Part shown: one piece after another, positions 4,476 to 45,987 of the stretch
Position numbering within the stretch: position 1 is the first letter of the stretch
Layout of the letters: the number at the start of each line of letters is the position of its first letter
NCBI RefSeq assembly: GCF_058153355.1
Contig: NZ_JBLWLY010000002.1
Length of the DNA: 64,000 bases
DNA from: a plasmid
Reading direction: 5' to 3' (one strand)
Program-made: the position numbers and the translations under genes
The notes under the pieces: model-generated
Databases searched by the model: none
What the model was told of the DNA's origin: nothing
What the model saw: only the letters and a program-made list of their open reading frames with translations

Positions 4476-4686
4476 GTAAGCGGCTCGCCAGAACCGTATT
4501 GATATTTACTGAGAGCTCAGATCAACTTTCCAGGGCAACAGATCGCGTACCCGGTTTGCCGGCCAGTCCTGGATATGTTCAATGACGTAACGCAGCCACT
4601 TTTCTGGCTCCACATTGTTCAGACGGCATGTGCCGATCAGCGAGTACAACACCGCAGCATGTTCACCACCGCTGTCAGAACCCGCG

Positions 4687-7943: not shown

Positions 7944-7993
7944 ACTCAGGTGTCCGTCTGTGTCAGATGGGCGTCTAAGTTACCAATTCTTGT

Positions 7994-8311
7994 CTAATGG
8001 CTACATACGGCAGTTGGTTTACGCTTACCAACTACACCTTTCAGTTCGGTAAAATCCGACAGGCCCCGCAGACCGGGCTGATGCCGCTGGCGGAACATGA
8101 CCTCCTGCTCTGCACCATACTGTAGCTTCCATTCGCGAACCCGCCGTTGCATTGTTCTTCGAAGGCTGTTGGGGTACTGACCGGGATATTTATCCTGTAG
8201 CATCTCCAGCAGAGTTGTTGGTGTTAGAGCAGGCCTCTCTTTCAACAGAGGAACAAGCATGCTGTCCCACACAGCTTCAGTAATAATGCCGGTATCAGTT
8301 TTTATCATCAC
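7994..8311 (-). pseudogene. short fragment, possibly from an IS transposase
   Basis: 105-aa ORF ending at the IS66 terminus; assignment is a guess from its position among IS elements. Confidence 0.3.
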
Positions 8312-23296: not shown

Positions 23297-24073
23297 ATGA
23301 ACGAAAACACAACGCTGAATGCACTGATTTGTCGTCACGCCCGAGACCTGCTGCTGGCGCAGGGCTGGCCGGAAGAGACGGATGTTGACCAGCGGAACCC
23401 GAAGTATCCGGGCTGGATCAGCATTTATGTTCTGCTGGATGCGCCCCGGCTGGCGACGTTACTTATCAACCGTCACGGCGGCGCACTGCCGCCACTCCTG
23501 GCCTCCGCCATTCACAAACTGACCGGAACCGGGGCGGAACTTGTACTGTCCGGCAGTCAGTGGCAGTCGCTGCCGGTACTTCCGGCAGACGGAACGCAGG
23601 TGTCTTTCCCGTATGCCGGTGAGTGGCTGGCAGAGGATGAAATCAGGGCAGTTCTTGATGCGGTACGCGATGCAGTACGCTGTGTCAGTTACCAGGTGGC
23701 AGAAGATACGCGGCGTATCCGGGCGGCGCTGACCACAACCGGTCAGACGTTACTGACCCGCCAGACGCGCCGCTTTCGCCTGGTCGTGAAGGAAAGCGAT
23801 CACCCCTGCTGGCTCGATGAGGACGACGAAAACCTGCCCGTGGTGCTCGATGCCATCCTGAACCGGGGCGCACGTTTTTCGGCGGTGGAAATGTATCTGG
23901 TCAGCGATTGTATTGAGCATATCCTGTCCAGTGGGCTGGCCTGCGATGTGCTGCGTATACCGGATGAACCGCCCCGCCGGTGGTTTGACCGTGGTGTTCT
24001 GCGGGAGGTGGTCCGGGAAGCCCGGGCCGAAATTCGCAGCATGGCGGATGCCCTGGCAAAAATCCGGAAATGA
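23297..24073 (+). CDS. hypothetical protein
   Basis: 258-aa ORF, same strand as the preceding block. Confidence 0.5.
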
Positions 24074-24375
24074 TGACGATGGCGGGGAAAATCTATGGTC
24101 ACCCCCGTTTTTGCAACACTGATTTTTGATTAATGGTGGGCTTGCTTAAATCTATCCGGCGTCTCTGTGGGCAAGGGATGCCCGCGCCTCGATGAGTTCC
24201 GCACCTGATAATCCTAAAAATCCCCTCGGCTTCAGTGAGCCATTTTCCCCTGTTAGGTTTTTAATCAGGTCGATTTGCCGTTCATGTCATCAATAATCAA
24301 TCTTCGCAAAACCAGACGGTAACTTGTATCTTATTGTTTGCAATAAGCTAATTGAGTTTTGTCAGCATCTATATA

Positions 24376-25266
24376 TCAGGCCTGATATTCTTTTTGCTGA
24401 GTAGTGATTGCCCAGGCAATTCGGGCCAGTTTATTTGCCAGAGCGCAGGCAACCACATTCGAATGCTTCTTGTTGAGTTGCTCCCGAACCCACTCAGCAA
24501 GTTTTCCATGCTGGCGTTCAAGCTGCATCATGAATGAGCGGGCACACTGAACCAGTAACCGGCGTAAATTTTTATCACCTCGCTTACTGATACCCAACAG
24601 AGTCGATTTTCCTCCAGTGCTATACTGCCGGGGAACGAGCCCTGTGGAAGCCGCAAAATCTCTGCTGCATGAAAACAGTTTCCCGTCACCAAGTTGCGAC
24701 GATAGTAAGCTGGCAGTAATCGGCCCAACACCAGGAATTGTCATAATGCGCTGAGCGGTATCATCAGCGTTGATTGACTGACTTAATTCTGATTCCAGCT
24801 CTGCTATTTGCTCAACAAGGTAAAGGTAGTGGGTATGCAACCTCACCAAAAGGCGGCTCAGATATTCGGGGATTTCGTGTTCAGCCAATACGAGAGACAA
24901 CCGTTTTATTACGGCATCCCCTGTCGGCAGGCTGATTCCAAATTCCAGCAGGAAACCGTGGATCTGGTTGGTTGTTTTCACCTTATCTCTGATGAGCGAT
25001 TCTCTGACCCGGTGTAATGCCCTCATTGCCTGCTGGGTCTCAGTTCTTGGTTGGACAAAACGCATTGATGGTCGTGAAGCCGCTTCACATATGGCTTCTG
25101 CATCAACAAAATCATTCTTATTACTTTTGACAAACGGGCGAACGAACTGTGGAGAAATCAGCTTAGTTTCATGTCCAAAATCAGAGATACGGCGAGCCAA
25201 AAAGTGTGCACCCGCACAGGCTTCCATTACAACAACTGAGGGCGGACATGTTGCCAGAAACTGCAT
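24376..25266 (-). CDS. IS110-family transposase; 5' end overlapped by IS66 terminal repeat
   Basis: 296-aa ORF; upstream in frame to about 25365 encodes YLIGIDLGKHSFHIH but no start codon is left. Confidence 0.7.
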   Translation of the reverse strand: MQFLATCPPSVVVMEACAGAHFLARRISDFGHETKLISPQFVRPFVKSNKNDFVDAEAICEAASRPSMRFVQPRTETQQAMRALHRVRESLIRDKVKTTNQIHGFLLEFGISLPTGDAVIKRLSLVLAEHEIPEYLSRLLVRLHTHYLYLVEQIAELESELSQSINADDTAQRIMTIPGVGPITASLLSSQLGDGKLFSCSRDFAASTGLVPRQYSTGGKSTLLGISKRGDKNLRRLLVQCARSFMMQLERQHGKLAEWVREQLNKKHSNVVACALANKLARIAWAITTQQKEYQA

Positions 25267-25451
25267 CAGTTTAGTACGGGTAAATTTTTTACGCAGAAGA
25301 GCCTTACCAGACTTGTCTTGACAATGAATGTGGAAGGAATGCTTTCCGAGATCGATACCAATAAGGTAAGCGTAAACTGACCGCCGTATGTAGCCATTAA
25401 GCCTGTATTGGTAACGTAGGTGCCCACCTTTTCAACTAGTGGACACCTGTT

Positions 25452-25871
25452 ATGGAACAGAAAGCATTATCCGCAGAACCCCGCAGATCATTTTCAAATG
25501 AGTTTAAACTTCAAATGGTTAAACTGGCTTCACAACCAGGAGCCTCTGTTGCCCGTATTGCCCGGGAACACGATATCAATGATAACCTGCTGTTCAAATG
25601 GCTCAGGCTCTGGCAGAACGAAGGGCGCATATCGCGGCGTCTTCCGGTAACAACCTCTTCTGACACTGGCGTTGAATTATTACCTGTGGAGATAACGCCG
25701 GATGAGCCGAAAGAACCGGTGGCTGCTCTTACTCCGTCTTTATCTACTCAGACTACAGTTAGTGCCAGCTCCTGCAAGGTGGAGTTCCGTCACGGTAACA
25801 TGACGCTGGAAAATCCTTCACCAGAGCTGCTCACAGTGTTGCTCCGTGAACTGACCGGGAGGGGACGATGA
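25452..25871 (+). CDS. IS66 OrfA
   Basis: 139 aa, IS66 orfA-like (FKLQMVKLASQPGASVARIARE). Confidence 0.8.
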   Translation: MEQKALSAEPRRSFSNEFKLQMVKLASQPGASVARIAREHDINDNLLFKWLRLWQNEGRISRRLPVTTSSDTGVELLPVEITPDEPKEPVAALTPSLSTQTTVSASSCKVEFRHGNMTLENPSPELLTVLLRELTGRGR

Positions 25872-26218
25872 TCTCACTCCCGTCAGGCACCCGCATCTGG
25901 CTCGTTGCTGGGATAACCGATATGCGTAAGTCTTTCAACGGGCTGGGTGAACAGGTACAGCATGTGCTGAATGATAATCCCTTCTCCGGTCACCTGTTCA
26001 TCTTCCGTGGCCGACGGGGTGACATGATTAAAATCCTGTGGGCTGATGCTGATGGTCTGTGCCTGTTCACCAGACGCCTGGAGGAAGGCCAGTTTATCTG
26101 GCCTGCTGTGCGTGACGGCAAGGTATCCATTACCCGCTCGCAACTGGCAATGCTCCTCGATAAGCTGGACTGGCGTCAGCCAAAAACATCCCGCCTTAAC
26201 GCACAGACAATGTTGTAA
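25868..26218 (+). CDS. IS66 TnpB
   Basis: 116 aa, LPSGTRIWLVAGITDMRKSFNGL. Confidence 0.8.
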   Translation: MISLPSGTRIWLVAGITDMRKSFNGLGEQVQHVLNDNPFSGHLFIFRGRRGDMIKILWADADGLCLFTRRLEEGQFIWPAVRDGKVSITRSQLAMLLDKLDWRQPKTSRLNAQTML

Positions 26219-26248
26219 AAATGTCATGGCCGGATTATAAAAACGGCC

Positions 26249-27840
26249 ATGAATCAAAAATACCTCATTCGCATTGCAGAACTGGAATGCCAGCTCCGTC
26301 AGAAAGACCAGCAACTGAGTCTGGTTGAAGAGACGGAGGCCTTCCTGCGCTCTGCACTGGCCCGCGCCGAAGAAAAGATCGAAGAAGATGAACGGGAAAT
26401 AGAACATCTGCGGGCTCAGATAGAAAAACTGCGCCGGATGCTGTTCGGTACCCGTTCTGAAAAACTGCGTCGTGAAGTTGAACAGGCTGAGGCCCTGCTG
26501 AAACAACGCGAACAGGACAGTGATCGTTACAGTGGGCGGGAAGACGATCCGCAGGTTCCCCGCCAGTTGCGACAGTCTCGTCATCGTCGCCCGTTACCGG
26601 AGCATCTGCCCCGCGAAATAAATCGCCTGGAGCCAGAAGAAAGCTGTTGCCCGGAGTGTGGCGGTGAGCTGGATTATCTGGGGGAAGTCAGCGCAGAACA
26701 ACTGGAACTGGTGAGCAGCGCTCTGAAAGTGATCCGCACAGAACGGGTAAAAAAAGCCTGTACAAAATGTGACTGCATCGTTGAAGCACCGGCACCATCC
26801 CGTCCGATAGAGCGTGGTATCGCGGGCCCGGGGTTACTTGCCCGCGTGTTAACGGGAAAATACTGCGAACACCTGCCACTGTATCGTCAGAGTGAAATTT
26901 TTGCCCGTCAGGGTGTCGAACTGAGCCGTGCATTACTCTCCAACTGGGTTGACGCGAGCTGCCAGTTAATGACGTCGCTGAATGATGCCCTGTACCGTTA
27001 TGTGATGAACAGCCGCAAAGTTCACACTGATGACACACCAGTAAAAGTGCTGGCACCGGGCAGGAAGAAGGCGAAAACAGGATATATCTGGACGTATGTC
27101 CGGGATGACAGGAATGCCGGTTCGCCAGAGCCTCCGGCGGTCTGGTTCGCCTACTCACCGGACCATCAGGGTAAACATCCGGAGCAGCACCTTAGTCCCT
27201 TCCGGGGTATCCTGCAGGCAGATGCGTTTAATGGTTACGATCGGCTGTTCAGTGCCGAACGAGAAGGCGGCGCGTTGACGGAAGCAGGATGCTGGGCTCA
27301 TGCGCGGCGCAAAGTCCACGATGTATATATCAGTACCAAAAGCGCGACAGCGGAAGAAGCACTGAAACTAATCGGTGAGCTGTACGCCATCGAGCACGAA
27401 ATACGCGGGTTGCCGGTGTCTGAACGCCTGGCGGTCAGGCAAATGCAGAGTAAACCGCTACTGACTTCCCTGTATAAGCTGATGCAGAGAAAGAACACAC
27501 GTTATCGAAAAAATGCCGTCTGAGAGATGCGTTCCGGTATATCAGGAAGCACTGGGTTGTGTTGTGCAATTTCAGTGATGATGGTCTGGCTGAGGCGGAT
27601 AATAATGCCGCGGAAAGAGCGCTTCGTGCAGTCTGTCTCGGAAAGAAAAACTTTATGTTCTTCGGCAGCGATCACGGTGGAGAGCGTGGTGCGCTACTGT
27701 ACGGGCTGACCGGCACCTGCCGACTGAACGGTATCGATCCGGAAGCGTATCTGCGCCATATCCTGAGCGTACTGCCGGAATGGCCTTCCAACCGTGTTGA
27801 CGAACTCCTGCCATGGAACGTAGCACTCACCAATAAATAA
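26249..27840 (+). pseudogene. IS66 TnpC transposase, frameshifted near 27520
   Basis: ORF 26249..27523 continues in another frame as ORF 27559..27840. Confidence 0.7.
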
Positions 27841-28086
27841 GCGTCAATACGGTGCTCCGTTGACGCTTACGGTGACGGGCTGTGCCTCCTGACCAAACGG
27901 CTGGAGCGTGGGCGTCAGCCCGTGATGGCAAAGTGTTCCTTCGGACACGGCAAAAGCGTTCGCATACCTGCTGAAACAGTGGGTATGCACTGAACGTGTA
28001 CTGCAGTAATGGCTGGGTGGAAATCGACAACAACATCGCAGAGAACGCCTTACGGGGAGTGGCCGTAGGCCGGAAAAACTGGCTCT

Positions 28087-29910
28087 GTGTGTCACGAAGG
28101 AGTACTTATGGCAACAATGTGAAAATTGCAGCATAAGTTATCCATGCTCTGAGGTGGGTGGAGGTGGGCCCTCCGGTCAGGGTTTACAGGAGCACTGACC
28201 AAACGACCCGGTGCTGCTTCATTCTAAGGAATGAGGTGGTGAGCGACTCGGGAAAAGGCAGAGATCTACTGTCACGTGGGGTTCGGGAAGCTGAACGAAA
28301 GTAAACTGTCCGATGAAGCATCGAAATCTTAGATGATGTCAAAATGGGGCCGTACAGCCGTCCCCTGATAAGCGCAGAAGACACCTGCTTACTGACTGCG
28401 CGGCATCCGGTGTGAAGGCAGCAGGATCCCGGGCCAGACCATCTCAGGGAACGTGAGAACCTGTTTCCGGCACGTATCGGGAAACAGGGGCGGACCCATT
28501 CGTAGTAGTGATGAAAGATCTGTAATGGGTCTGGAGCGAAGGGATGGGGATCACATTCATTGCAGAAGACACAACCCAAAAGGGGATGACGTAACTGATG
28601 CAACGAAAATCATTTGAAATACCAAAAGCACTGGTCTGGGCATCATATCTGGATGTGCGTCGCAACAAGGGAGCCCCCGGATGCGACGGGCAGACTTTGA
28701 AAATGTTCGACCAGCAACGTGATGGCAATCTATACAAGATCTGGAACCGGCTATGTTCGGGAACATGGTTTCCGCCACCAGTGCTGGAAAAACGGATCCC
28801 GAAGTCGAATGGCAAGGAACGCATTCTGGGGATCCCAACAGTATCCGATCGAATTGCTCAGGGAGCGATAAAACTTTTCATGGAAGAAAAGCTTGACCCG
28901 ATTTTCCATGCTGATTCATATGGTTACCGACCAGGCAAATCAGCTCATGACGCTCTGAAACAATGTGCCATCCGGTGCTGGCGTTATAGCTGGATACTGG
29001 AAGTGGACATCAGTGCGTTTTTCGACCATGTGAGACATGATCTGGTGCTCAAAGCTCTGGAACACCACGGGATGCCTAAATGGGTCATCCTGTACTGTCG
29101 ACGCTGGATGGAAGCGCCAATGCAGAGTTGTGAAAATGGAGAATTAATAACCCGAACACGAGGCACTCCGCAGGGCGGGGTCATTAGTCCACTACTTGCT
29201 AACTTGTTCCTTCACTATGCATTTGATTTGTGGATGGAAAGAGAATATCGGGGGGTACCGTTTGAGAGGTACGCTGACGATATTGTAGTACATTGTTCAC
29301 GAATGAGTGATGCAACAAGGCTGAAGAACAGGTTATCGGAGCGCTTCTCGGAAGTCGGGCTGGTCCTGAATGCAGGGAAAACGAATATCGCCTACATTGA
29401 CACGTTTAAAAGGAGAAACGTCGCAACGAGTTTCACCTTTCTCGGATATGACTTCAAAGTGCGTACGCTGAAGAATTTCAAAGGCGAACTGTACCGAAAA
29501 TGCATGCCGGGTGCGTCAAATGCAGCAATGCGCAAAATAACAGAAACAATCAAGAAGTGGCGTATACATCGCTCAACAGCTGAGAGTTTGCTGGATTTTG
29601 CGAGGCGCTACAATGCGATAGTGAGAGGCTGGATCGAGTACTACGGAAAGTTCTGGTCCAGAAATTTCAACTATCGACTGTGGAGTGCAATGCAGTCACG
29701 TCTGCTCAAGTGGATGCAGTCTAAATACAGACTTTCGAACCGGAAGGCTCAGCGAAAGCTGACGCTGGTAAGGAAGGAGTATCCGAAGCTATTTGTTCAC
29801 TGGTATTTACTACGTGCATCAAATGAGTGATCAAGAGCCGTATGACGCGAGAGTGTCACGTACGGTTCCGTGAGCAGCCGGGGAGTGAAATTCTCTCCGG
29901 CTGACTCGAC
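28087..29910 (+). mobile_element. bacterial group II intron, copy 2
   Basis: same sequence as copy 1 in opposite orientation; begins gtgtg after ...aaaaactggctct and ends ...gactcgac before tcgcgggttctgac. Confidence 0.8.
28598..29830 (+). CDS. group II intron-encoded reverse transcriptase/maturase
   Basis: 410 aa, identical to ORF 4768..6000. Confidence 0.85.
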   Translation: MQRKSFEIPKALVWASYLDVRRNKGAPGCDGQTLKMFDQQRDGNLYKIWNRLCSGTWFPPPVLEKRIPKSNGKERILGIPTVSDRIAQGAIKLFMEEKLDPIFHADSYGYRPGKSAHDALKQCAIRCWRYSWILEVDISAFFDHVRHDLVLKALEHHGMPKWVILYCRRWMEAPMQSCENGELITRTRGTPQGGVISPLLANLFLHYAFDLWMEREYRGVPFERYADDIVVHCSRMSDATRLKNRLSERFSEVGLVLNAGKTNIAYIDTFKRRNVATSFTFLGYDFKVRTLKNFKGELYRKCMPGASNAAMRKITETIKKWRIHRSTAESLLDFARRYNAIVRGWIEYYGKFWSRNFNYRLWSAMQSRLLKWMQSKYRLSNRKAQRKLTLVRKEYPKLFVHWYLLRASNE

Positions 29911-30156
29911 TCGCGGGTTCTGACAGCGGTGGTGAACATGCTGCGGTGTTGTACTCGCTGATCGGCACATGCCGTCTGAACAATGTGGAACCAGAAAAAT
30001 GGCTGCGTTACGTCATTGAGCATATCCAGGACTGGCCGGCAAACCGGGTACGTGATCTGTTGCCCTGGAAAGTTGATCTGAGCTCTCAGTAAATATCAAT
30101 ACGGTTCTGACGAGCCGTTTACTCAGAAAGAGAGCGATACGCTACAGCTGGAGCTG

Positions 30157-32490: not shown

Positions 32491-33033
32491 GTGAGTATTA
32501 AATATATTGTGTTTATCTCTGCTTTATTAATTTCCAATACGGGAAAGGGGGGCGAACAGCGAGTTGTTTTCAATGTGGATATTGTAGGTTCTGCCTGTCA
32601 TGTGGTGGTGGATGCGGACGGTTTCGGCAACAGTGGCCGACTGATATTCGGGACTTACCGTAAATCCACTGGCGCACCTGTATTGCCACGTGACTTCGTT
32701 GTGCGCTTGTATGAGTCCGGCGCTACGGTTCAAGGGTGTTCAGCCTTTCGAGCGGGGCAGGTCGCAACTCTGGATTTTGGTAACCCGGGCCAGCTGGACG
32801 CAAAGGGAGTGGTCACTCGCGGTGCTGGTGATGGTATTCGCGTGGATGTACGGGCGGTGGATACACAGGCGGATTATCGCGGACGTCTGACTCAGGACAG
32901 TCATTCGGTGAATTACCCGGTGGAGTTTGCTGTTAAGGGACAGTTCCGTTTTCGTGCACAGCCGGTGTTTCCGGTGAACGTGAAGGCAGGGGAATACACA
33001 GGGGCGCTGACCTTTGTGGTCACGTATCAGTAA
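32491..33033 (+). CDS. K88/F4-type minor fimbrial subunit (FaeC-like position)
   Basis: 180-aa ORF immediately upstream of the usher gene; AT-rich promoter region upstream. Confidence 0.55.
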
Positions 33034-33044
33034 CAGAGGAAAGT

Positions 33045-35480
33045 GTGTGTGCAGGAAAGAAGGGGGCAGAGCTGGTTTTGTTCTTGTTTTTTCGTCGGGC
33101 CGCGCTTGCTGTATCAGTCGCTTTCGCCAGTGCCACAGGTGTTGCAGGTGAAAAACTGGATATGTCCTTTATTCGGGGTGGTGCCGGGATTAATCCGGAA
33201 GTCTGGGCAGCGCTGAACGGCAGCTATGCACCGGGACGTTATTTGGTTGACCTGTCCCTGAACGGGAAGGAAGCCGGGAAACAGATACTGGATGTGACAC
33301 CACAGGACAGTGATGAACTGTGCCTGACAGAGGCATGGCTGACGAAGGCCGGGATTTACGTCAGTGCAGATTACTTTCGTGAGGGATATGACGCCACACG
33401 GCAGTGTTATGTGCTGACAAAAGCGCCGTCAGTGAAGGTGGATTTTGATGTTTCCACTCAGAGTCTGGCGCTGTCCCTTCCCCAGAAGGGGCTGGTGAAG
33501 ATGCCGGAGAACGTGGACTGGGATTACGGGACTGGTGCATTTCGCGTGAACTATAACGCGAACGCCAACACCGGCCGGAATAACACCTCGACCTTTGGCT
33601 CGGCAGATCTGAAGGTTAATATTGGGCACTGGGTGGTGAGTTCTTCTGCCTCAGCCAGCGGTGGTGACAGCGGGGATAACTCCGCCACGATAAACGCGTT
33701 CACGGCCACCCGGGCCATCCGCGCACTGAGTGCGGACCTGACGGTCGGGAAAACATCCACCGGGAGCAGTCTGCTGGGCAGTACGGGAACGTACGGAGTG
33801 TCGCTGAGCCGGAACAACAGCATGAAGCCGGGCAATCTGGGGTATACCCCGGTGTTCAGCGGCATTGCGAACGGGGCGTCGAGGGTGACACTGACACAGA
33901 ACGGGCGGTTGCTGCATTCGGAGATGGTGCCGGCAGGTCCGTTCTCCATCACGGATGTGCCGCTGTACACCAGTGGGGATGTGACCATGAAAATCACCGG
34001 CGAGGACGGTCGTGAGCAGACTCAGGTCTTCCCGTTGTCGGTGATGGCCGGGCAGTTAAGCCCGGGACAACACGAGTTCAGCGTGGCAGTCGGTTTGCCT
34101 GACGATGACAGTGACCTGAAAGGCGGCGTGTTTGCGGCGTCATACGGTTACGGTCTGGATGGACTGACGCTGCGCACCGGGGGCGTGTTTAACCGGGACT
34201 GGCAGGGTATTAGCGCCGGGGCTGTCCTGGGGCTGAGTTATCTGGGGGCAGTGTCTGCTGACGGGGCTTATGCCATGGCGAAATACCGTGACGGCAGCCG
34301 CAGCGGAAATAAGGTGCAGTTATCCTGGAGTAAACAACTGGAGATGACGAACACCGGACTGCGGGTGAGCTGGTCACGGCAGAGTGAGGAATATGAGGAC
34401 ATGTCCTCCTTTGACCCGACAGAGCTGTGGTCGCAGTCAAATCATGGTCGCCGGCCGAAGGATGAATGGAATGCCGGTATCAGTCAGTCGGTGGGGGGGC
34501 TGTTCAGTCTGTCGGTGTCCGGCTGGCAGCGGAGTTATTACCCGGCACAGATGACGGGCCGTTATCGGTACAGCGATGACAATGGTCTGGACACAGGGAT
34601 TACCGGTACCCTGAGCACACAGATTAAGGGCGTCAGTCTGAATCTGGGCTGGTCCGGCTCACGGAATTCGCAGGGAGAGAATAACAGGTCGGCGTCAGCC
34701 TCTATCTCGGTGCCATTCACGCTGTTTGAGCGTCGCTACAGCAGCAGTACGTCGGTGAGTACCAGCAAAGGCGGTGGCACGGGCTTCAGCACTGGCGTGT
34801 CCGGCTCGCTGAATGACCGTTTCAGCTATGGCTTGGGCGGCGGTCGTGATAGCGGTGGTGGTGTGAGTAGTTATCTAAACGCGTCGTACAGTGGTGACCG
34901 GGCTTATCTGAATGGTGCCCTGAACCACTCACAGTCCGGCGGAACCAGTGGTTCTGTATCAGTCAGCGGTTCGGTACTGGTCGTCCCGACGGCGAAAGAC
35001 ATTATGTTCAGCCGCACGACCGGGGACACCGTGGCCGTGGTGAACGTGAAGGATACACCGGGTGTGAAGGTGACGTTCGGTGACGGACAGACTGACAGCG
35101 ACGGCAACCTGGTGGTACCGCTGAACAGCTATGACTGGAACACGGTGACGATTGATGCGGGCACACTGCCGCTGAGCACCGAACTGACGAACACCAGTCA
35201 GAAGGTGGTGCCGACGGACAAGGCGGTGGTCTGGATGCCGTTTGATGCCCTGAAAGTCAAGCGTTACCTGCTGCAGGTGAAGCAGCGTGACGGTGAGTTT
35301 GTGCCAGGGGGAACCTGGGCACGTGACAGTAAGAACACACCGCTGGGCTTTGTAGCTAACAATGGTGTGCTGATGATTAACACGGTGGATGCGCCGGGTG
35401 ATATCACCCTAGGCCAGTGCCGGATACCTGCGGCCAGACTGCAGGATACTGAGAAACTACAGGAGATTACGTGTGAGTAA
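33045..35480 (+). CDS. fimbrial outer-membrane usher (FaeD-like)
   Basis: 811-aa ORF, usher-sized, between subunit and chaperone genes. Confidence 0.85.
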   Translation: MCAGKKGAELVLFLFFRRAALAVSVAFASATGVAGEKLDMSFIRGGAGINPEVWAALNGSYAPGRYLVDLSLNGKEAGKQILDVTPQDSDELCLTEAWLTKAGIYVSADYFREGYDATRQCYVLTKAPSVKVDFDVSTQSLALSLPQKGLVKMPENVDWDYGTGAFRVNYNANANTGRNNTSTFGSADLKVNIGHWVVSSSASASGGDSGDNSATINAFTATRAIRALSADLTVGKTSTGSSLLGSTGTYGVSLSRNNSMKPGNLGYTPVFSGIANGASRVTLTQNGRLLHSEMVPAGPFSITDVPLYTSGDVTMKITGEDGREQTQVFPLSVMAGQLSPGQHEFSVAVGLPDDDSDLKGGVFAASYGYGLDGLTLRTGGVFNRDWQGISAGAVLGLSYLGAVSADGAYAMAKYRDGSRSGNKVQLSWSKQLEMTNTGLRVSWSRQSEEYEDMSSFDPTELWSQSNHGRRPKDEWNAGISQSVGGLFSLSVSGWQRSYYPAQMTGRYRYSDDNGLDTGITGTLSTQIKGVSLNLGWSGSRNSQGENNRSASASISVPFTLFERRYSSSTSVSTSKGGGTGFSTGVSGSLNDRFSYGLGGGRDSGGGVSSYLNASYSGDRAYLNGALNHSQSGGTSGSVSVSGSVLVVPTAKDIMFSRTTGDTVAVVNVKDTPGVKVTFGDGQTDSDGNLVVPLNSYDWNTVTIDAGTLPLSTELTNTSQKVVPTDKAVVWMPFDALKVKRYLLQVKQRDGEFVPGGTWARDSKNTPLGFVANNGVLMINTVDAPGDITLGQCRIPAARLQDTEKLQEITCE

Positions 35481-36255
35481 GCGTAACGCAGTAACGACGT
35501 TTTTCACTAACCAGGTGACAAAAGCACTGGGAATGACGCTGGCGCTGATGATGAGCTGTCAGAGTGCGGTGGCTTCCCTGGCGGCAGACCAGACCCGCTA
35601 TATCTTTCGCGGGGACAAGGATGCGCTGACCATCACGGTCACCAACAATGACAAGGGACGTACCTTTGGTGGTCAGGCATGGGTGGACAATATCGTGGAG
35701 AAAGACACCCGTCCGACTTTTGTGGTGACGCCGTCCTTCTTCAAGGTGAAGCCGAATGGTCAGCAGACACTGCGTATCATCATGGCCTCGGACCATCTGC
35801 CGAAGGATAAAGAGTCGGTGTACTGGCTGAACCTGCAGGATATTCCGCCGGCTCTGGAGGGCAGCGGTATTGCAGTGGCGCTGCGTACGAAACTGAAACT
35901 GTTCTATCGCCCGAAGGCACTGCTTGAAGGTCGCAAGGGGGCAGAAGAAGGCATCAGTCTGCAGAGCCGCCCGGATGGCAGGACCATGCTGGTGAACACC
36001 ACGCCATACATTTTTGCGATTGGCAGCCTGCTGGACGGAAACGGAAAGAAAATTGCCGCGGATAACGAGACGGCGCAGAAACTGCTGATGTTCATGCCGG
36101 GTGATGAAGTACAGGTGAAGGGAAATGTGGTGAAAGTGGACTCCCTGAATGATTACGGTGAACTGCAGACATGGACGATTAACCAGAAGAAATCAGCAAT
36201 ATCGTCTGCACAGAAGTCATCTGATACAGAGGGTAATTCATCTGATAAAAAATAA
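35473..36255 (+). CDS. periplasmic fimbrial chaperone (FaeE-like)
   Basis: 260 aa with signal peptide; start overlaps usher stop. Confidence 0.8.
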   Translation: MSKRNAVTTFFTNQVTKALGMTLALMMSCQSAVASLAADQTRYIFRGDKDALTITVTNNDKGRTFGGQAWVDNIVEKDTRPTFVVTPSFFKVKPNGQQTLRIIMASDHLPKDKESVYWLNLQDIPPALEGSGIAVALRTKLKLFYRPKALLEGRKGAEEGISLQSRPDGRTMLVNTTPYIFAIGSLLDGNGKKIAADNETAQKLLMFMPGDEVQVKGNVVKVDSLNDYGELQTWTINQKKSAISSAQKSSDTEGNSSDKK

Positions 36256-36289
36256 TCGCCCTCCGGCATACGGAACAGAGGGGTAATAA

Positions 36290-36781
36290 ATGAAGAAAAC
36301 AATGATGGTAGTCGCCTTGGCCCTGAGTGCACTCAGTATTCAGTCAACACTTGCCGCTGAATACAGCGAGAAAGCGCAGTATCTGGGGGTGGTGAATGGC
36401 CAGGTGGTGGGTAACAGCGTGGTGAAGGTAACCCGCACACCGACAGATCCGGTGCTGTACCGGAGTGGAGACACGACGCCTCTTCCCGACCGCCTGACCA
36501 TCCGTAATGCAGAATCCAGAGCAGCATCTGGTGGCTTGGCGTATATCACGGTGAAACAGGTGCTGCCTGATAACGGGGAAGCCCGCATCACCCTGAAGAC
36601 GGCCCTGATGGTTGATGGAAAGAAAGTGGCAATCAGCGCCAGACAGCAGGGTGAGGATATGGTGATAACTTTGCCGGAAGCACAGAAGCAGATTGAATTA
36701 AGAACGGATGCACCGGCAGAGCTGGAAGTACCGGTCAGTTACCGGGGAAATCTGCAGATAGCGCTGCAGGTGGAGGACTGA
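36290..36781 (+). CDS. minor fimbrial subunit (FaeF-like)
   Basis: 163 aa with signal peptide MKKTMMVVALALSALSIQSTLA. Confidence 0.6.
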   Translation: MKKTMMVVALALSALSIQSTLAAEYSEKAQYLGVVNGQVVGNSVVKVTRTPTDPVLYRSGDTTPLPDRLTIRNAESRAASGGLAYITVKQVLPDNGEARITLKTALMVDGKKVAISARQQGEDMVITLPEAQKQIELRTDAPAELEVPVSYRGNLQIALQVED

Positions 36782-36994
36782 GGATTCATTTCCTTTATAA
36801 ATGCAGTACATCCCGTGATTCCGGAGCGGGTCATATTGGTAAAGGGATTTACCGTCTTTTAAAACGGGAATAACGTAAAACAATTCTGAGTTAAACACTG
36901 TGTTTAATGAAATGCGGTTATTTAAATGAATCCGCAGGGGATGGTTTTGCGGTAATTCCGGGGAAATAAGGATTACTGATTCAGTTTATTATTT

Positions 36995-37819
36995 ATGAAA
37001 CGTCAAGGTGATTATTTTATGAAAAAGACTCTGATTGCACTGACTGTGGCTGCTTCTGCCGCAGTATCCGGCTCTGCTATGGCGTGGAATCCCGCTGGCC
37101 TTGGTGGCAACGGTGGCACCTTTAGCATGAGTGGTACTCTGAGCAAAGCTGCGAAAGTAGTACCGTGGGCAGTGGAAATAGGTGCTCCGGTAACAGCGCT
37201 TGATGTGACCGTTAAACCTGACCAGAAGAATGTTTTCATTCTTTTAGAAAAAGACATACCGATACTTGGCATTCGTAGCGCCCCGCAGGGTTTCATAGGG
37301 GAAAAGGGTATTGCCCCACAAATCGATTATAATAAAGCCGCTAATTTTGATTATATGGATAAGGGGAATTTACCTGCGGAAATTGATGTCACATCATCTG
37401 ATGGTAAGAAAATTGGTACTCTGGCGTTCGTAATGCGAGTTGCCTGTCAGGCCAGCGAAAAGAAGGGTGAAAGCGACGACAAGTTAAATAGTAGCATGCT
37501 ATTCGCTGGTTCAAAAGGTAAAGCTTTCTTTGGTGGAGTTGCCAAAGATGAAAAGGGTATCTGGAGTGACGCCGCTGCCTATACTTGGGCTACCCACCTT
37601 TTTAGCAGTATTGCTGACTCGTGGGATACTAAAATTCCTTACACGGCGGGCGATGCAGATGAAACCGACTTCAGTGATGGAAACAGTATTTACCGAGGTT
37701 ACTATGCATCCGGCCTTGTCAAGGGTATGCCCATGGAACTAACTCTTGATCAGACTATAACGTCTGCTACCCCAATTCCGTGGAAAGCTTCTCTGCCAAT
37801 TGTTATCTCCTACATGTAA
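36995..37819 (+). CDS. major fimbrial subunit (FaeG-like)
   Basis: N-terminus MKKTLIALTVAASAA...AWNP resembles K88 FaeG MKKTLIAL...AW; 274-aa ORF, probable start about 37020. Confidence 0.75.
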   Translation: MKRQGDYFMKKTLIALTVAASAAVSGSAMAWNPAGLGGNGGTFSMSGTLSKAAKVVPWAVEIGAPVTALDVTVKPDQKNVFILLEKDIPILGIRSAPQGFIGEKGIAPQIDYNKAANFDYMDKGNLPAEIDVTSSDGKKIGTLAFVMRVACQASEKKGESDDKLNSSMLFAGSKGKAFFGGVAKDEKGIWSDAAAYTWATHLFSSIADSWDTKIPYTAGDADETDFSDGNSIYRGYYASGLVKGMPMELTLDQTITSATPIPWKASLPIVISYM

Positions 37820-38032
37820 TTCAGCAGTGTTCAGCAGTAAGCACTTACCCGTTTACTGCTGATTAAAACTTCAGAACACAGTTTCCGGTGACCCGACCTG
37901 AATATACAGAACCGGTATGTCAGAACAGGTGTTTTTCTGTTGGAGTGTCTTGTGACGCATATTGGTTCTGTGCTTTTTTTAACAAAATTATTTTATTGAG
38001 CTGTTTTGTTTTATCCGGATAAACAGGAATGA

Positions 38033-38836
38033 ATGCCGATGAAAATAACGCATCATTATAAATTCTTCCTTTCTGCTGTTATTTTGGTAACCATATTTTA
38101 TTCGGCAGTGCCATATGCAAATATTCTTGATGGCGGCGAAATTCAGTTTAATGGCTATGTTACTGATGAAGCACCCAAATGGGCCTGGCAGATAAGTTCT
38201 CCCGACCAGACTTGGTCTGTGGATACTGCCGATGCCCGTACAGAGAACGGGCAACTGGTTTTTAATTTGCATGATAAAGGGGCTCTGCCATTTCTGGAGG
38301 GACATCTGCATGATGTGGCTGAGCGCGGTGGTCCCGGATTCACGCCATTTATTACTTTCAGCAGTAACGGACAGCCTTTTACTGTGACGGAAGGAAATGG
38401 TGCCTCAGCACAGCACTTTCGCGCCTCTGTCCCGGTGCGTGACCCGGAGACGGGGAACGTGTCGGGACAGCTTTTTTTTACCCTGAATCAGGGAATGGCG
38501 GTCAGTACCGGCAGACAGGACGACGGGGCATCCGTACCGGCTGGCATGTCGCTGGTCAGTGGACAGAGTGTGACGGATGTACAGCCGGGAAGTCTGCCAC
38601 AGGGGCTGAAAGCCCGACTCTCTTCCCTGTTACTGATGAATCAAAATTTTGGCAATGGCATGAATGCGGTGGATAACGGACAGGTTATCAACCAGGGGAT
38701 ACTGACTGACGGTCGGGTGATGGATCTGGCTGCGGCATATGCCTCTGCGGTGTCGGATTTTGAACTGCGGTTGCCGGCAGAGGGTACACCTGCAGCATGG
38801 CAGGCGGGGCTGAATGTGACGGTTACAGTACAGTGA
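38033..38836 (+). CDS. minor fimbrial subunit (FaeH-like)
   Basis: 267 aa with signal peptide; position after major subunit. Confidence 0.6.
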
Positions 38837-38865
38837 TGGTTGCAGGGATATAAGGAGAGAAGAGA

Positions 38866-39630
38866 ATGAAAAAGGTGGCGTTGTTTCTGTTTGCTGCTAG
38901 CCACCTGCCTTCCTGTGTACTGGCTTGGAACACGCCAGGAGAAAATTTCAGCGGAGAGCTTAAGCTGGAAGGCCCGGTGACCAGTACCCGTAACCCGTGG
39001 GTATGGAAAGTCGGGCAGGGAAATGAAGGTCTGGAGGTTAAACAGAGCCGCGGTGTTCGTGGCGGTGGGGAGGGGATTCAGGTCGAACTGCCGGCGATGA
39101 CCGTTTTACTGGGAAAAACCACCCTGACCACACCGGCAGGACGTGAGGGGCTTTCACCCCGGGTCAGTTATGGAAAAGGCACTGAGGGGTTTTCACTTGT
39201 ATGGACAGCGCCTGGCATGGCTGAAGTGACGCTACCTGTCACCGGAGATAATAATGCCCGGGCAGGCACATTTGTTTTCAGAATTCAGGCTGTGGGGGTG
39301 TTGCGCCATGTGCAGGGCGGACAACCGGTGTATGTTGGTATGTATGACGACCTGAATACGAATGGTTTGCCAGGTGAAAGCACTGCCATGAAGGTTTCTG
39401 ATATTCCGGGCGTTCTGCAGAAGATGTTCAGTGGGGAAGGCCCCGGCTGGCTTCAGACAATGACACTCAGTGGTTATTCAGGGGTGAGTCATTTCAGTGA
39501 TGACTTCCTGCGCCAGGTTGAAGGTGTGTATGGTGCACAGACTGTGGCTGGCAGTGGTGAATTACGGCTGAACGGCGAGATGCCGGAACACTGGAGGGTG
39601 TCACTGTCAGTAAACATTGAATATCAGTAA
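38866..39630 (+). CDS. minor fimbrial subunit (FaeI-like)
   Basis: 254 aa with signal peptide ending AWNTPGE, similar N-terminus to the major subunit. Confidence 0.6.
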   Translation: MKKVALFLFAASHLPSCVLAWNTPGENFSGELKLEGPVTSTRNPWVWKVGQGNEGLEVKQSRGVRGGGEGIQVELPAMTVLLGKTTLTTPAGREGLSPRVSYGKGTEGFSLVWTAPGMAEVTLPVTGDNNARAGTFVFRIQAVGVLRHVQGGQPVYVGMYDDLNTNGLPGESTAMKVSDIPGVLQKMFSGEGPGWLQTMTLSGYSGVSHFSDDFLRQVEGVYGAQTVAGSGELRLNGEMPEHWRVSLSVNIEYQ

Positions 39631-39953
39631 GGAGCAGGAGTGCGTTTTATAATCCGGAGATAAGGAACGTCGGTTACTGTAAGATTGGGGAGTTGTGTTG
39701 ATAGCGGGAGTGGCTGGAATAAGTGGTATACATAGATAAAAATTAAAACTATCACTATTTGAGGAGTTTTTTCCTGCTCTCCATGGGCTTTATAGCTCAC
39801 AAAAAATAGAATAATATTATTAATTATTCTGCTTTTTTATGGGCATTCCCCCTTGAAAAATGAGTTTGTGCCAGAATATTATTAATGTGTTTTTTGTGAT
39901 TTACTAATCAAGGATTGCTGAATAGCATCCAGTACTGAATATTTTGTTCAATT

Positions 39954-41180
39954 ATGTCAGGAACCATACCGAAAATCAAAACAGGTGAAAATGTTCTGTC
40001 TGCAGCCATTCAGCGCATTGAATGGCTATTTGGAACGTTTCCTTCTGTCTGCTTGTCCTTTTCTGGTGGTAAGGATTCTACCGTGCTTTTCCATCTTGTG
40101 TCCGAAGTGGCCCGCAAAAAGAGGCGTCGTTTTTCGGTATTGTTCATTGACTGGGAAGCACAATATCAATGCACCATTACGCATATTCAGAAGATGCAGA
40201 AGATGTACCTGGATGTGACGGACAGGTTTTACTGGGTGGCCCTTCCCCTGACTACGGTAAACGGTGTCTCTCAGTTTCAGCCGGAGTGGATATGCTGGGA
40301 GCCTGGTGTGACCTGGGTTCGCCATCCACCGGAATATGCTATTACGGATATGGCGTATTTTCCCTTTTACCGATATGCCATGACCTTTGAGGAATTTATC
40401 CCGGCGTTTTCCTCCTGGTTTGCCAGGGATAAATACCTGGTGGCTGTTCTGACCGGAGTCCGGGCAGATGAGTCCCTCAACCGCTTTATGGGACTGGTAT
40501 CCCGTCGCAAACAGAGATATGCCGATGATAAACCCTGGACTACGGCATCACCTGAAGGGTTTTATTACACCATGTATCCGTTGTATGACTGGAAAGCCCG
40601 TGATATCTGGATATATAACGCCAGAACCCGAGCTATCTACAATCCCCTGTATGACCTGATGCACCGTGCCTGTGTGCCGTTACGCAACATGCGTGTCTGT
40701 GAGCCTTTTGGTCCTGAACAGCGTAAGGGGCTGTGGCTTTATCATGTTCTGGAGCCGGAAACCTGGGCCAAGATGTGTGAGCGGGTGTCGGGTGCTGCCA
40801 GCGGGGCGCTTTATGCCAATGAGAGCGGTGCCTATTTTGCCCTGCGTAAGCGTATCACGAAGCCGCCTCATCATACCTGGCGTAGCTATGCGATGTTCCT
40901 GCTGGATGTGATGCCGGAAAGAACGGCAGAACATTACCGTAACAAAATTGCTGTCTACCTGCGCTGGTATCAGACGCGAGGCTTCCCGGATGACATTCCG
41001 GATGAACAGGAGAATGACCTGGGGGGCCGGGATATCCCGTCCTGGCGACGCATCTGTAAAACACTCATAAAAAATGATTTCTGGTGCCGGACCCTCTCCT
41101 TCAGTCCGAACAAAGCCCGGCACTATGAACGTTACCTGCAGCGTATGAAGGAAAGGAGGAAGGAATGGGGGATTCTGTGA
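39954..41180 (+). CDS. PAPS-reductase-family (PP-loop) protein, IbrA-like
   Basis: 408 aa with PP-loop motif SFSGGKDS near the N-terminus. Confidence 0.7.
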   Translation: MSGTIPKIKTGENVLSAAIQRIEWLFGTFPSVCLSFSGGKDSTVLFHLVSEVARKKRRRFSVLFIDWEAQYQCTITHIQKMQKMYLDVTDRFYWVALPLTTVNGVSQFQPEWICWEPGVTWVRHPPEYAITDMAYFPFYRYAMTFEEFIPAFSSWFARDKYLVAVLTGVRADESLNRFMGLVSRRKQRYADDKPWTTASPEGFYYTMYPLYDWKARDIWIYNARTRAIYNPLYDLMHRACVPLRNMRVCEPFGPEQRKGLWLYHVLEPETWAKMCERVSGAASGALYANESGAYFALRKRITKPPHHTWRSYAMFLLDVMPERTAEHYRNKIAVYLRWYQTRGFPDDIPDEQENDLGGRDIPSWRRICKTLIKNDFWCRTLSFSPNKARHYERYLQRMKERRKEWGIL

Positions 41181-41803
41181 CACCGGAGATACTTGGCAAC
41201 ATGATTCGTCAGTATTTCAGTCAGGTACGAACTGAAAAAGAGAGCATACAGGCTCTGAATCATCTGCGCAGAGTGCTTCATGAGGTCAGTCCTTTTGCAC
41301 AGGAGCCTGTGGACTGTGTGTTGTGGGTGAAAGCGGATGAGGTGGTGGCCAACGATTACAACCCTAATGTCATGGCACTAGGTGAGAAAAAACTACTGAA
41401 ACAGTCTCTGGAGAAAGATGGTTTCACACAACCGGTGGTGGTGTCAGAGGAGAAGAATCATTATCTGGTGGTGGATGGTTTTCATCGTCAGTTACTGGGG
41501 CGGGAAGCAGATACAGGAAAACGCCTGAGGGGCTGGTTGCCTGTAGTCTGTATTAATCCGGAGAGAAAGGGACAGGCCGCACGTATTGCCGCGACCATTC
41601 GACATAACCGGGCCAGGGGGAAACACCAGATCACTTTAATGTCTGATATTGTCAGGGATCTTTCACGTCTGGGCTGGACGAATGAACGTATTGGTACAGA
41701 GCTGGGAATGGACCAGGATGAAGTGCTGAGGCTGAAACAGATTAGCGGGCTGACAGAGTTGTTTCAGGAAGAGGATTTCAGCCCGGCTTGGACGGTTCGT
41801 TGA
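41165..41803 (+). CDS. ParB-like nuclease-domain protein, IbrB-like
   Basis: 212 aa with VVDGFHR (ParB/DGQHR-type motif); start overlaps upstream stop. Confidence 0.7.
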   Translation: MGDSVTPEILGNMIRQYFSQVRTEKESIQALNHLRRVLHEVSPFAQEPVDCVLWVKADEVVANDYNPNVMALGEKKLLKQSLEKDGFTQPVVVSEEKNHYLVVDGFHRQLLGREADTGKRLRGWLPVVCINPERKGQAARIAATIRHNRARGKHQITLMSDIVRDLSRLGWTNERIGTELGMDQDEVLRLKQISGLTELFQEEDFSPAWTVR

Positions 41804-42030
41804 TGCTGTTAAATATGGGCGGTATTTCTGAAAGTTGATACTTTGGGTAGAAAAAATGATACCGGAAACTATGAAGGATGTGCTTGTCAGGTGACTAGAC
41901 ACCATAGGTCTTAGGCTTTGATAACGGGATAAGATGAGCTGCTTTTCTCATACCATCAGGTGTGATGATGTCGCAGATTTACAAAATCTGATTGATTCTA
42001 AAGATGTATAAGTAAGGAAAAAGTTTTGAT

Positions 42031-42915
42031 ATGAAAAAACAGATATTTATTAATAATAAACCTCCTGTAGTCCCTTATTCAGGGGCGCACGCGAAAATAT
42101 TTAAATACATTGAAATCCCTCTGCCGTTTTTCTACTTTATCTATACATCAGGCGAACCATTCCACATGTCTGTCCAAAATACTGTTATTTATGTATCAAA
42201 ATACAATGGTATATTTATTAATAAATCAGTTCCTTTTTCTTTTTTATTTGACAGAGATATATCTGTTCTTCAAAGAAGAGATATTTGTGTTGTGCGATTT
42301 ACGTCAGAGGAGATAAGTGAACATAATGTTTTATTTGATCATGACTTTGAACGATTAAAAAAAATTTCCAAAGCTCAGCTTATATCTCCCGATTATGTTT
42401 TGATTGATTTTTCTAGTGGGGGGGAGGATGAATCCTACGCAATGTCCTGGTTAATATCTCAGTGTACTCATCAGTATACAGATAATAAAAAGACGGAGAC
42501 AGATGCTATTTACGATAAAGTGCGGAGTTCTTATTTGCTTTCATGTATTCTGCAAAAAAACGAAAATGTTGGGCTTATTCTTCATGCACCATCATTTGTT
42601 TCTGTGTCTGAAAAAATCGCCAGAATTGTGATGGCAAATTACTCCCGTAACTGGAGTACTTCCGAGTTGGCCAGTGCGGTTTTAATGAGTGAATCTTCTT
42701 TAAAAAGAAGAATGTACAAAGAGGTCGGTTCTATAAGTACATTTGTACATAAAATAAAGCTTACAGAAGCTATCAGGAAATTACGAAGGACAAATACTCC
42801 CATTTCTGTCATATCATCTGAGTTAGGTTACAGTTCACCATCGTATTTTTCTAAAGTTTTCTTTAAATATTTAAAGACATACCCTCAAAACATAAGGAAG
42901 AAAAATGGTCGGTAA
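42031..42915 (+). CDS. AraC-family transcriptional regulator (Rns/AggR-type position)
   Basis: 294 aa, low-GC gene; C-terminal region AraC-type HTH. Confidence 0.75.
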   Translation: MKKQIFINNKPPVVPYSGAHAKIFKYIEIPLPFFYFIYTSGEPFHMSVQNTVIYVSKYNGIFINKSVPFSFLFDRDISVLQRRDICVVRFTSEEISEHNVLFDHDFERLKKISKAQLISPDYVLIDFSSGGEDESYAMSWLISQCTHQYTDNKKTETDAIYDKVRSSYLLSCILQKNENVGLILHAPSFVSVSEKIARIVMANYSRNWSTSELASAVLMSESSLKRRMYKEVGSISTFVHKIKLTEAIRKLRRTNTPISVISSELGYSSPSYFSKVFFKYLKTYPQNIRKKNGR

Positions 42916-43102: not shown

Positions 43103-43144
43103 CGCGCCGCCTTCGTAAGCGGCTCGCCAGAACCGTATTGATAT

Positions 43145-44716: not shown

Positions 44717-44735
44717 ATCCTCACTTTACAACGGG

Positions 44736-45083
44736 TTATATGCGGATGCCAGCGCGTTCCGTTCGTTTCGGGTGTTTCCAGTCGATGCCCTCAAGAAGCA
44801 TGGATAACTGGGCCGGAGTAAGGTGCACCTTGCCGTCACGGGTGACCGGCCAGACGAAGCGGCCCCGCTCCAGGCGTCTGGTGAAGAGGCACAGTCCGTC
44901 ACTGTCAGCCCACAACACTTTTATCTGGTCACCCCGGCGTCCGCGGAAGATGAACAGATGCCCGGAGAACGGGTCATCCTTCAGGACGTTCTGAACTTTT
45001 GAGGCCAGGCCGTTAAAGCCATTTCGCATATCGGTGATACCTGCAACCAGCCAGATACGCGAACCTGCAGGGAAAGATATCAT
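44736..45083 (-). CDS. IS66 TnpB
   Basis: 115 aa. Confidence 0.8.
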   Translation of the reverse strand: MISFPAGSRIWLVAGITDMRNGFNGLASKVQNVLKDDPFSGHLFIFRGRRGDQIKVLWADSDGLCLFTRRLERGRFVWPVTRDGKVHLTPAQLSMLLEGIDWKHPKRTERAGIRI

Positions 45084-45694: not shown

Positions 45695-45732
45695 TTCCGG
45701 ATTATCTGCCAGTACCGCCTTTCGTGCATTCG

Positions 45733-45987
45733 GACGGTGGCGGTTACATGATGCCGGATGGCGACCGTTTTTATCTGGTCAACAGTGAAAACTGGTTTGA
45801 CCGCACGGTCAGCGCCGATGCCGCAGGCATCATTCTTACCTCCCTTGTGATTAACCGCCTGTTGTGGCTGTACCACGACAGCGGGGATGCGGGACTGACA
45901 CACCTGTACCGGATGCGCGATGCGCAGTTGTGGAGCCACATCGAATTTCACCCCGAATGTAACGCGATTTACGCGGCACTGGACTGA
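45733..45987 (+). pseudogene. KlcA/ArdB-family antirestriction gene, 3' fragment
   Basis: C-terminal SDGGGYMMPDG...SADAAGI...AIYAALD resembles KlcA; no matching N-terminus upstream. Confidence 0.55.

Follow-up and report, generated by a model that had tools for sequence, protein, structure and literature searches.

A 5′-truncated ISSfl8-like insertion sequence flush against a complete IS66-family element in a plasmid

In a 64,000-nucleotide stretch of plasmid DNA (contig NZ_JBLWLY010000002.1 of the NCBI RefSeq assembly GCF_058153355.1; hereafter, the window), a transposase reading frame of the IS110 family, on the minus strand, runs without a start codon up to the terminal repeat of an IS66-family element. 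An earlier reading made from the letters alone (the sequence-only reading) had proposed that the start codon was lost to that repeat, one insertion sequence (IS) having inserted into, or recombined at, the 5′ end of the other. The feature is a 5′-truncated copy of a named insertion sequence, ISSfl8; it is of an already known kind and represents ordinary decay in an IS-crowded plasmid. Very probably, an ancestral, guided ISSfl8 insertion later lost its left 85 bp, along with ∼570 bp of plasmid backbone, in an IS66-associated event.

A Megablast search of 5,426 complete E. coli genomes showed the window, read from 25365 to 24089, to be 96.5% identical to ISSfl8-family copies (E = 0), and local blastn gave 96.4% identity to an intact copy over these 1,277 bp; in both cases identity was judged against RefSeq copies labelled 'ISSfl8 family'. 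The matching E. coli elements are annotated in RefSeq as 'IS110-like element ISSfl8 family transposase' (WP_001179707.1). The homology ended at 25365; the next base, 25366, is the first of the GTAAGCG terminus of the IS66-family element. The frame upstream of the annotated open reading frame (ORF) translates into the IS110 N-terminus (IGIDLGKHSF) that the sequence-only reading had recognized there, and the remnant frame matched Pfam DEDD_Tnp_IS110 (PF01548, E = 1.8e-20) and Transposase_20 (PF02371, E = 5.4e-22), as well as the NCBIfam model NF033542, 'IS110 family RNA-guided transposase' (353 bits, the cut-off being 140; profile positions 2-342 of 343). The N-terminal DEDD/RuvC-like domain followed by a C-terminal PF02371 domain, as well as a right subterminal repeat with its 3-bp extension, place the remnant in the IS1111 group of the IS110 family. 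IS1111-family elements have subterminal repeats of 11–13 bp, with extensions of 7 bp on the left and 3 bp on the right, and a longer non-coding region downstream of tnp that yields the seekRNA (PMC11187229). In the intact copies of ISSfl8 the subterminal inverted repeat measures 12 bp and is perfect (ATGGTCACCCCC / GGGGGTGACCAT); the extensions are TAATGAT (7 bp) on the left and AGA (3 bp) on the right. The window copy does not have the left repeat with its extension (TAATGAT-ATGGTCACCCCC); this reflects the truncation of the copy and is no evidence against its membership of the IS1111 group.

The alignment with intact IS110-family elements that the sequence-only reading had proposed located the missing 5′ end between codons 5 and 6. 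The intact reference protein (WP_001179707.1, 334 aa), encoded at locus L001 (NZ_CP053662), begins MQNITLIGIDLGK, and its gene starts 15 nt upstream of the point at which the homology with the window begins. Over the 329 residues retained in the window, 319 (97%) were identical to WP_001179707.1, with no frameshift and no internal stop. The sequence upstream of the L001 gene reads ...GGGGA|TAATGAT-ATGGTCACCCCC-accttaacagcagtacgctgttaaggtaaatccctttaacggagagaccatc-ATGCAGAACATCACA-CTTATTGGTATCGAT..., with TAATGATATGGTCACCCCC...ATGCAGAACATCACA belonging to the left end of ISSfl8. L001 and two further intact or left-half copies, L007 and L006, carry 85 extra bases relative to the window (84 in L006), which include the left subterminal repeat and, in L001 and L007, the ATG (ATA in L006). 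The loss of the start codon noted earlier was therefore real and was understated, since the whole 85-bp left end is gone: 70 non-coding bp, comprising the 7-bp extension, the left subterminal repeat and the ribosome-binding region, plus 15 coding bp (the ATG and four codons). This is the only lesion of the element. Neither its left end (ATGGTCACCCCC, TAATGAT) nor its left flank was found anywhere in the 64-kb window when up to three mismatches were allowed.

A search for a functional start and ribosome-binding site upstream of 25266 left the claim of start loss standing. Upstream of this point the frame translates as ...YIRRSVYAY-LIGIDLGKHSFHIHCQDKSGKALLRKKFTRTKL-MQFLAT..., and no in-frame ATG, GTG or TTG was present between the upstream stop (∼25440) and 25266. 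The first in-frame ATG on the minus strand is the one at 25266 (M39), which opens a 296-aa ORF (24376..25266). No Shine-Dalgarno-like sequence was found in the 20 nt before this ATG, or before the in-frame ATT and ATC codons, and a promoter scan detected no sigma-70-like site on the minus strand that might drive the remnant. A complete transposase gene with its start codon, as a functional element would have, is thus absent, codons 1–5 being gone. The remnant probably cannot make a full-length transposase, because M39, the only start it could use, comes after the IGID motif; loss of expression is likely as well. Judging from the sequence, a product begun at M39 would lack this motif, which opens the DEDD/RuvC-like domain and at which the Pfam match starts; the Asp of GID is presumably the first catalytic D of the DEDD domain.

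The neighbouring element, by contrast with its truncated partner ISSfl8, is complete. It matched a copy in E. coli FDAARGOS_943, annotated tnpA/tnpB/tnpC, from end to end (query 1-2505, 99.5%), and contained a match to NCBIfam NF033517 (transpos_IS66). Its left inverted repeat (IRL), GTAAGCGTAAACTGACCGCCGTAT, starts at 25366, where the sequence-only reading had put it, and the plus strand across the junction reads ...gatcgataccaataag|GTAAGCGTAAACTGACCGCCGTATGTAGCC.... Its termini, GTAAGCGTAAAC...CCGTAT and GTAAGCGTCAAC...CCGTAT, are inverted repeats related to each other; the tnpA-tnpB-tnpC order and the GTAAGCG termini are those of the IS66 family. Insertions of this family normally leave 8-bp target duplications. 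No 8-bp duplication was found around the element (left flank, CCAATAAG; right flank, GGTGACGG), and a fragment of another IS66-family tnpC lies to the right of its right inverted repeat (IRR). The three-gene layout, the GTAAGCG termini and the size of 2.5 kb liken it to the ISEc43-like elements of the family, from which the window copy differs in having no 8-bp duplication and a tnpC in two ORFs.

Two further observations concern this element. Its tnpC (26249-27840, plus strand) is split into ORFs of 424 and 93 aa; the best E. coli match to the element measures 2506 nt, compared with 2505 nt here, which fits a 1-nt indel that shifted the tnpC frame. A sub-threshold Rfam match to AfaR (25355-25444, minus strand; 44.9 bits, the gathering score being 100; E = 4e-6) overlies the IRL, a position more suggestive of IS66-derived sequence within the AfaR model than of this small RNA being present.

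The original insertion site of ISSfl8 was recovered from uninterrupted sequence. On its right the remnant is flanked by the 3′ end of a ycfA-like leading-region gene of F-like plasmids. A 239-bp query from the ycfA side (window 23850-24088) matched plasmid L005 (NZ_CP026754) at 100%; its empty site reads GGCGGGGATTTTCCCCGCC (more widely, ...caggaaaaaGGCGGGGATTTTCCCCGCCatcgtc...), and a second empty site was found in L004. In the window, the right end of the remnant reads ...GACCATAGA|TTTTCCCCGCCatcgtc. Together these two readings give the target as GGCGGGGA^TTTTCCCCGCC, a terminator-like palindrome. The right boundary of the remnant, set against this uninterrupted site, is ambiguous by 1–3 nt, GAT/T being common to element and target. 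By local BLAST, the backbone to the left of the target (antirestriction and DUF1380 genes) is not met again in the window until 45731-46795, and ∼570 bp of it are missing (L005 2275-2840). The intervening ∼21 kb hold IS66-family mosaics, a group II intron and a csh-like fimbrial operon. The junction at 25365/25366 thus appears to record a recombination or deletion associated with IS66, and not a simple insertion, because there is no 8-bp duplication, the left end is absent from the window and ∼570 bp of backbone are gone. Of the two possibilities left open by the sequence-only reading, recombination is the better fit, and simple insertion fails on the missing duplication and the lost backbone.

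Relatives of the same insertion were present in Shigella plasmids. The pINV plasmid pCP301 matched the window from 25107 to 23800 at 99.2%, and the Shigella pINV plasmids matched at 99.2–99.4%. In pCP301, ycfA, a gene widely conserved in F-like plasmids, occupies by annotation the place next to the ISSfl8 remnant (SF_p0203, 'putative transposase') that the ycfA-like gene has in the window, and the insertion site, right flank and guide are those of the window. The pCP301 copy is cut ∼260 bp further in and adjoins ISSfl4, also of the IS66 family, in the opposite orientation; compared with this pINV remnant, the window retains more of the 5′ coding region and has no left end. In S. dysenteriae and S. 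boydii plasmids, the left flank GGCGGGGA and the ISSfl8 left end, both missing from the window, are still present (...caggaaaaaGGCGGGGA|TAATGAGATGGTCACCCCC..., running to the equivalent of window position 25088). The surviving left half of the ancestral ISSfl8 in S. dysenteriae (L006 3650-4022; plasmid CP026822) has its ATG mutated to ATA, along with small indels; these changes show independent decay of the same insertion. By sequence, the window and the Shigella pINV copies evidently descend from one ancestral insertion, which IS66-family elements then disrupted in each of two lineages, at a different point in each. The insertion next to ycfA is accordingly a lineage marker that ties the leading region of this plasmid to the Shigella pINV plasmids.

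The way in which the target was chosen can be read, at least provisionally, from the element's 3′ non-coding region. This region contained exactly two exact matches of at least 8 nt to the plasmid target, GGGGAAAAT and GGGGATTTT. In IS1111-family seekRNAs, the guide complementary to the top strand of the target lies 5′ of that complementary to the bottom strand (PMC11187229); here, GGGGAAAAT (24250-24242), the top-strand complement, lies 5′ of GGGGATTTT (24225-24217), as that order demands. The guide regions of four copies were compared (window 24217-24250, minus strand; L001 2608-2660; L007 1508-1560; L002 6851-6903). The chromosomal variant has AGATGAAAT as its first guide, matching its own target ATTTCATCT; pCP301 carries the plasmid-type GGGGAAAAT. 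The second guide, GGGGATTTT, was unchanged across all variants, the chromosomal one likewise having GGGGATTT at this place. The chromosomal variant occupies two independent sites, both GGGGA^TTTCATC: GGTGGGGA^TTTCATCTTATC, in a DUF4942 gene (empty site, L003), and GCGGGGGA^TTTCATCAATC, between treA and dhaM. Empty sites were recovered for all three targets (one plasmid, two chromosomal). The targets of the two guide variants are GGGGATTTCATC and GGGGATTTTCCCC. The first guide thus covaries with the right half of the target, while the second guide and the left half, GGGGA, are both constant; a guide change of 4–5 nt (AGATGAAAT versus GGGGAAAAT) coincides with a target switch from GGGGA^TTTCATC to GGGGA^TTTTCCCC. 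RNA folding predicted an internal loop holding both guides around a GGCUC...GCC hairpin, with the same architecture in the window and in the chromosomal variant. The guide segments may belong to a real seekRNA, and guides and target fit the published seekRNA/bridge-RNA mechanism. The one-guide difference looks like natural retargeting between elements that are 97% identical in protein, a phenomenon already described for ISEc11 versus ISXne4 (PMC11187229). The covariation supports the seekRNA/bridge-RNA model; it is of modest value and the only mildly new point here.

Taken together, this arrangement would be explained if an ISSfl8-like element, guided by its own 3′-encoded seekRNA, had inserted into the palindrome GGCGGGGA^TTTTCCCCGCC that follows the ycfA-like gene in an F-like plasmid, in an ancestor common to the window lineage and the Shigella pINV plasmids. 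A later IS66-family rearrangement in the window lineage would then have removed the left 85 bp and ∼570 bp of adjacent backbone, either because the element inserted and IS66 copies then recombined with each other, or through an IS66-mediated adjacent deletion, so that codon 6 of the transposase now directly adjoins a complete IS66 inverted repeat. The order of these events and the type of rearrangement are those that the present arrangement would suggest. Several points weigh against this explanation. The exact ISSfl8/IS66 junction was not found in the 5,426 E. coli genomes (best coverage 89%, ISSfl8 only), nor was it among the matches listed from 72,556 PLSDB plasmids (best coverage 69%, pINV type), so that it rests on this single assembly; the window is compatible with recombination as well as with deletion. 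Non-canonical in-frame ATT, ATC and CTG codons occur between 25365 and 25266 and might conceivably act as weak starts. As for the putative seekRNA, its fold energy was not better than that of shuffled sequence (z = 0.33 and -0.20), and no Rfam family matched 23900-25600 at a permissive threshold, apart from the sub-threshold AfaR hit over the IS66 repeat.

The most serious of the other explanations is a variant of the preferred one. The IS66 element might have transposed cleanly between codons 5 and 6 of ISSfl8, duplicating CCAATAAG, and a later recombination or inversion between IS66 copies might have moved the other half (IRR, CCAATAAG and the ISSfl8 left end) outside the window; this differs from an adjacent deletion, in which the left end would have been destroyed. 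The boundary does coincide with the first base of an intact IRL, and the window offers several IS66-family copies as partners (4475-6656 versus 30123-27941; an IRL at ∼8028). Against this, the 64-kb window does not contain the left end, and the ∼570 bp of backbone lost along with it fit a deletion better. Moreover, the predicted reciprocal junction (left flank, left end, CTTATTGG, IS66 IRR), used as a chimeric query, was spanned by no plasmid record; the best matches stopped at query position 252, where L006, the one match examined there, continues into ISSfl8 and not into IS66. What this query did retrieve was the ancestral left flank with the left end in Shigella plasmids. Clean transposition is thus possible, though clearly the less probable course. 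That the junction is an assembly chimera, produced from collapsed or mis-joined IS66 copies, might be suspected in a window so dense with near-identical IS66-family repeats, and the absence of the exact junction from the E. coli genomes and from the listed plasmid matches is in line with it. A mis-join between copies would, however, normally fall within the repeat and not at its tip, while the break observed lies exactly at the first IS66 base, as the end of a biological transposition or deletion would; the related pINV copies, furthermore, show this ISSfl8 copy to have been struck repeatedly by IS66-family elements. A chimera is therefore very unlikely.

Two other proposals would leave the element functional. 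The 296-aa ORF from M39 is intact and the frame is otherwise undamaged, so that the gene might still work from the ATG at 25266 or from a non-canonical ATT, ATC or CTG codon upstream of it. The position of M39 downstream of the IGID motif, and the failure to find a Shine-Dalgarno-like sequence before 25266 or the ATT/ATC codons, or any promoter-like site, speak against this; even if the protein were supplied, the left end needed for circle formation (PMC11187229) would be absent. A working gene is hence extremely improbable. The other proposal starts from the site-specificity of IS1111-family elements, some of which target the terminal repeats of transposons. The ISSfl8-like element could accordingly be complete and specific for a site at or within the IS66 repeat, in the manner of IS4321 and IS5075 in Tn21-family repeats, gaining its start codon on circularization; the reading frame does stay open into the IS66 repeat. 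The targets of IS4321 are mentioned in PMC11187229. What distinguishes such elements, a complete IS that splits the host repeat and guides that match this repeat, was not found here: the IS66 IRL is complete and unsplit, and the guides match the palindrome downstream of ycfA and not the IS66 repeat. L001, L007 and L006 carry the 85 (84) bases, with the left repeat, that the window lacks, and the ATG of the intact copies is itself part of the left end, with no junction to be spanned. Targeting of IS66 repeats with a start codon acquired on circularization is contradicted by the intact copies and the guide matches, and is the least credible of all.

Under the preferred explanation, an ancestral ISSfl8 insertion truncated by an IS66-associated event, the remnant would be a fossil. 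Circle formation needs both ends of the element plus target-derived sequence on both flanks, and transcription of tnp and the non-coding region is believed to start from a promoter that arises at the circle junction (PMC11187229). Since the left end is gone, the remnant appears to be immobile, even with transposase supplied in trans. Judging by the bases involved, the abutted right and left ends of ISSfl8 would read TTGCAA, 17 nt, GATAAT; the -10 half of this candidate promoter would have been lost with the left end. The practical consequence is mainly one of annotation: the frame should be recorded as a pseudogene and not as a transposase, one more decayed IS in an IS-rich plasmid of the virulence type. 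It is conceivable, but unlikely, that an undamaged seekRNA gene, re-programmed by nature, survives in the remnant and possibly influences in trans the target choice of chromosomal ISSfl8. Were this seekRNA still transcribed (read-through from the IS66 element or the defunct tnp frame being one way), the chromosomal ISSfl8 transposase could load it, and the two variants would be a minimal natural example of an IS1111-type target change made one guide at a time.

Compared with chromosomal ISSfl8 (WP_001179707.1), the window copy shares the right repeat GGGGGTGACCAT with AGA, the layout of the 3′ non-coding region and the left-half target GGGGA; it differs in lacking the first 85 bp, in its guide (GGGGAAAAT in place of AGATGAAAT) and in lying in a plasmid palindrome rather than at GGGGA^TTTCATC. 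A DEDD transposase is common to ISSfl8, to the seekRNA systems of ISEc11, ISKpn4 and ISPa11 (Siddiquee et al. 2024, PMC11187229) and to the IS110/IS621 bridge RNA system. With these systems ISSfl8 further shares a long non-coding region downstream of tnp, two short ordered guides, the 7-bp and 3-bp extensions, the lack of a target duplication and retargeting via a guide change. It differs from them in that its seekRNA is putative, the apparent retargeting involves one of the two guides only and transposases 97% identical, and the window copy is non-functional; 'ISSfl' does not appear in the main text of PMC11187229. The features described are listed in Table 1.

Table 1. Coordinates of the ISSfl8-like remnant, its target and the adjoining IS66-family element in the window
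Feature	Coordinates	Strand	Details
ycfA-like plasmid leading-region gene	23297..24073	+	Downstream hairpin is the ISSfl8 target
Right half of the original target, TTTTCCCCGCC	24081..24091	-	Half of the terminator-like palindrome downstream of the ycfA-like gene
ISSfl8-like element remnant	24092..25365	-	IS1111 group of the IS110 family; right end intact, left 85 bp gone
3′ non-coding region and right end of ISSfl8	24092..24375	-	∼284 bp, downstream of tnp
Right subterminal inverted repeat, GGGGGTGACCAT	24095..24106	-	Followed by the 3-bp extension AGA (24092-24094), then the target TTTTCCCC
TTGCAA, candidate -35 of the circle-junction promoter	24111..24116	-	Read from sequence
Predicted seekRNA stem-loop	24204..24269	-	Outer stem CCUGAU/AUCAGG, inner stem CCUAA/UUAGG
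Guide segment GGGGATTTT	24217..24225	-	Identical to top strand, left half plus crossover region; complementary to bottom strand
Guide segment GGGGAAAAT	24242..24250	-	Complementary to top strand, right half of the plasmid target (ATTTTCCCC)
Startless transposase frame	24376..25365	-	329 codons, L6 to A334 of the 334-aa reference; stop at 24376-24378
Codons for IGIDLGK	25339..25359	-	Start of the DEDD/RuvC-like domain, retained but presumably untranslatable; Pfam DEDD_Tnp_IS110 begins here at profile position 1
Complete IS66-family element, 2505 bp	25366..27870	+	IRL GTAAGCG..., IRR ...CGCTTAC; IRL replaces the ISSfl8 left end
IS66-family genes	tnpA 25452-25871, tnpB 25868-26218, tnpC 26249-27523 and 27559-27840	+	tnpC split

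Other repeats in the window are related to the IS66 family. A 2.2-kb repeat is present twice in inverted orientation (28100-30123, plus strand, versus 4475-6656; 99.7% identical; 30123-27941 as the repeat span). This unit consists of a group II intron with a reverse transcriptase/maturase gene (ORF 28598-29830; TIGR04416, 394 bits) inside a fragment of another IS66-family tnpC. A further IS66-type IRL, GTAAGCGTAAACCAACTGCCGTATGTAGCC, lies at 7960-8030 (minus strand), inverted relative to that at 25366; the ∼420 bp adjoining it are ∼81% identical to the element at 25366, which makes it a possible partner for inversion or recombination. Another IS66-family element occurs in two 99.8%-identical copies (43114-45730, minus strand, and 61170-63138), the former apparently without its left inverted repeat at the backbone junction, 45731, where a fragment of an antirestriction gene begins. 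Between IS66-family elements lies a chaperone-usher fimbrial operon (32491-42915, plus strand), the usher of which matches the PefC/AfrB family (NF011760, 1203 bits); the DNA of a 274-aa ORF of this operon is 96% identical to 'cshE pilin' genes of E. coli and Shigella boydii plasmids.

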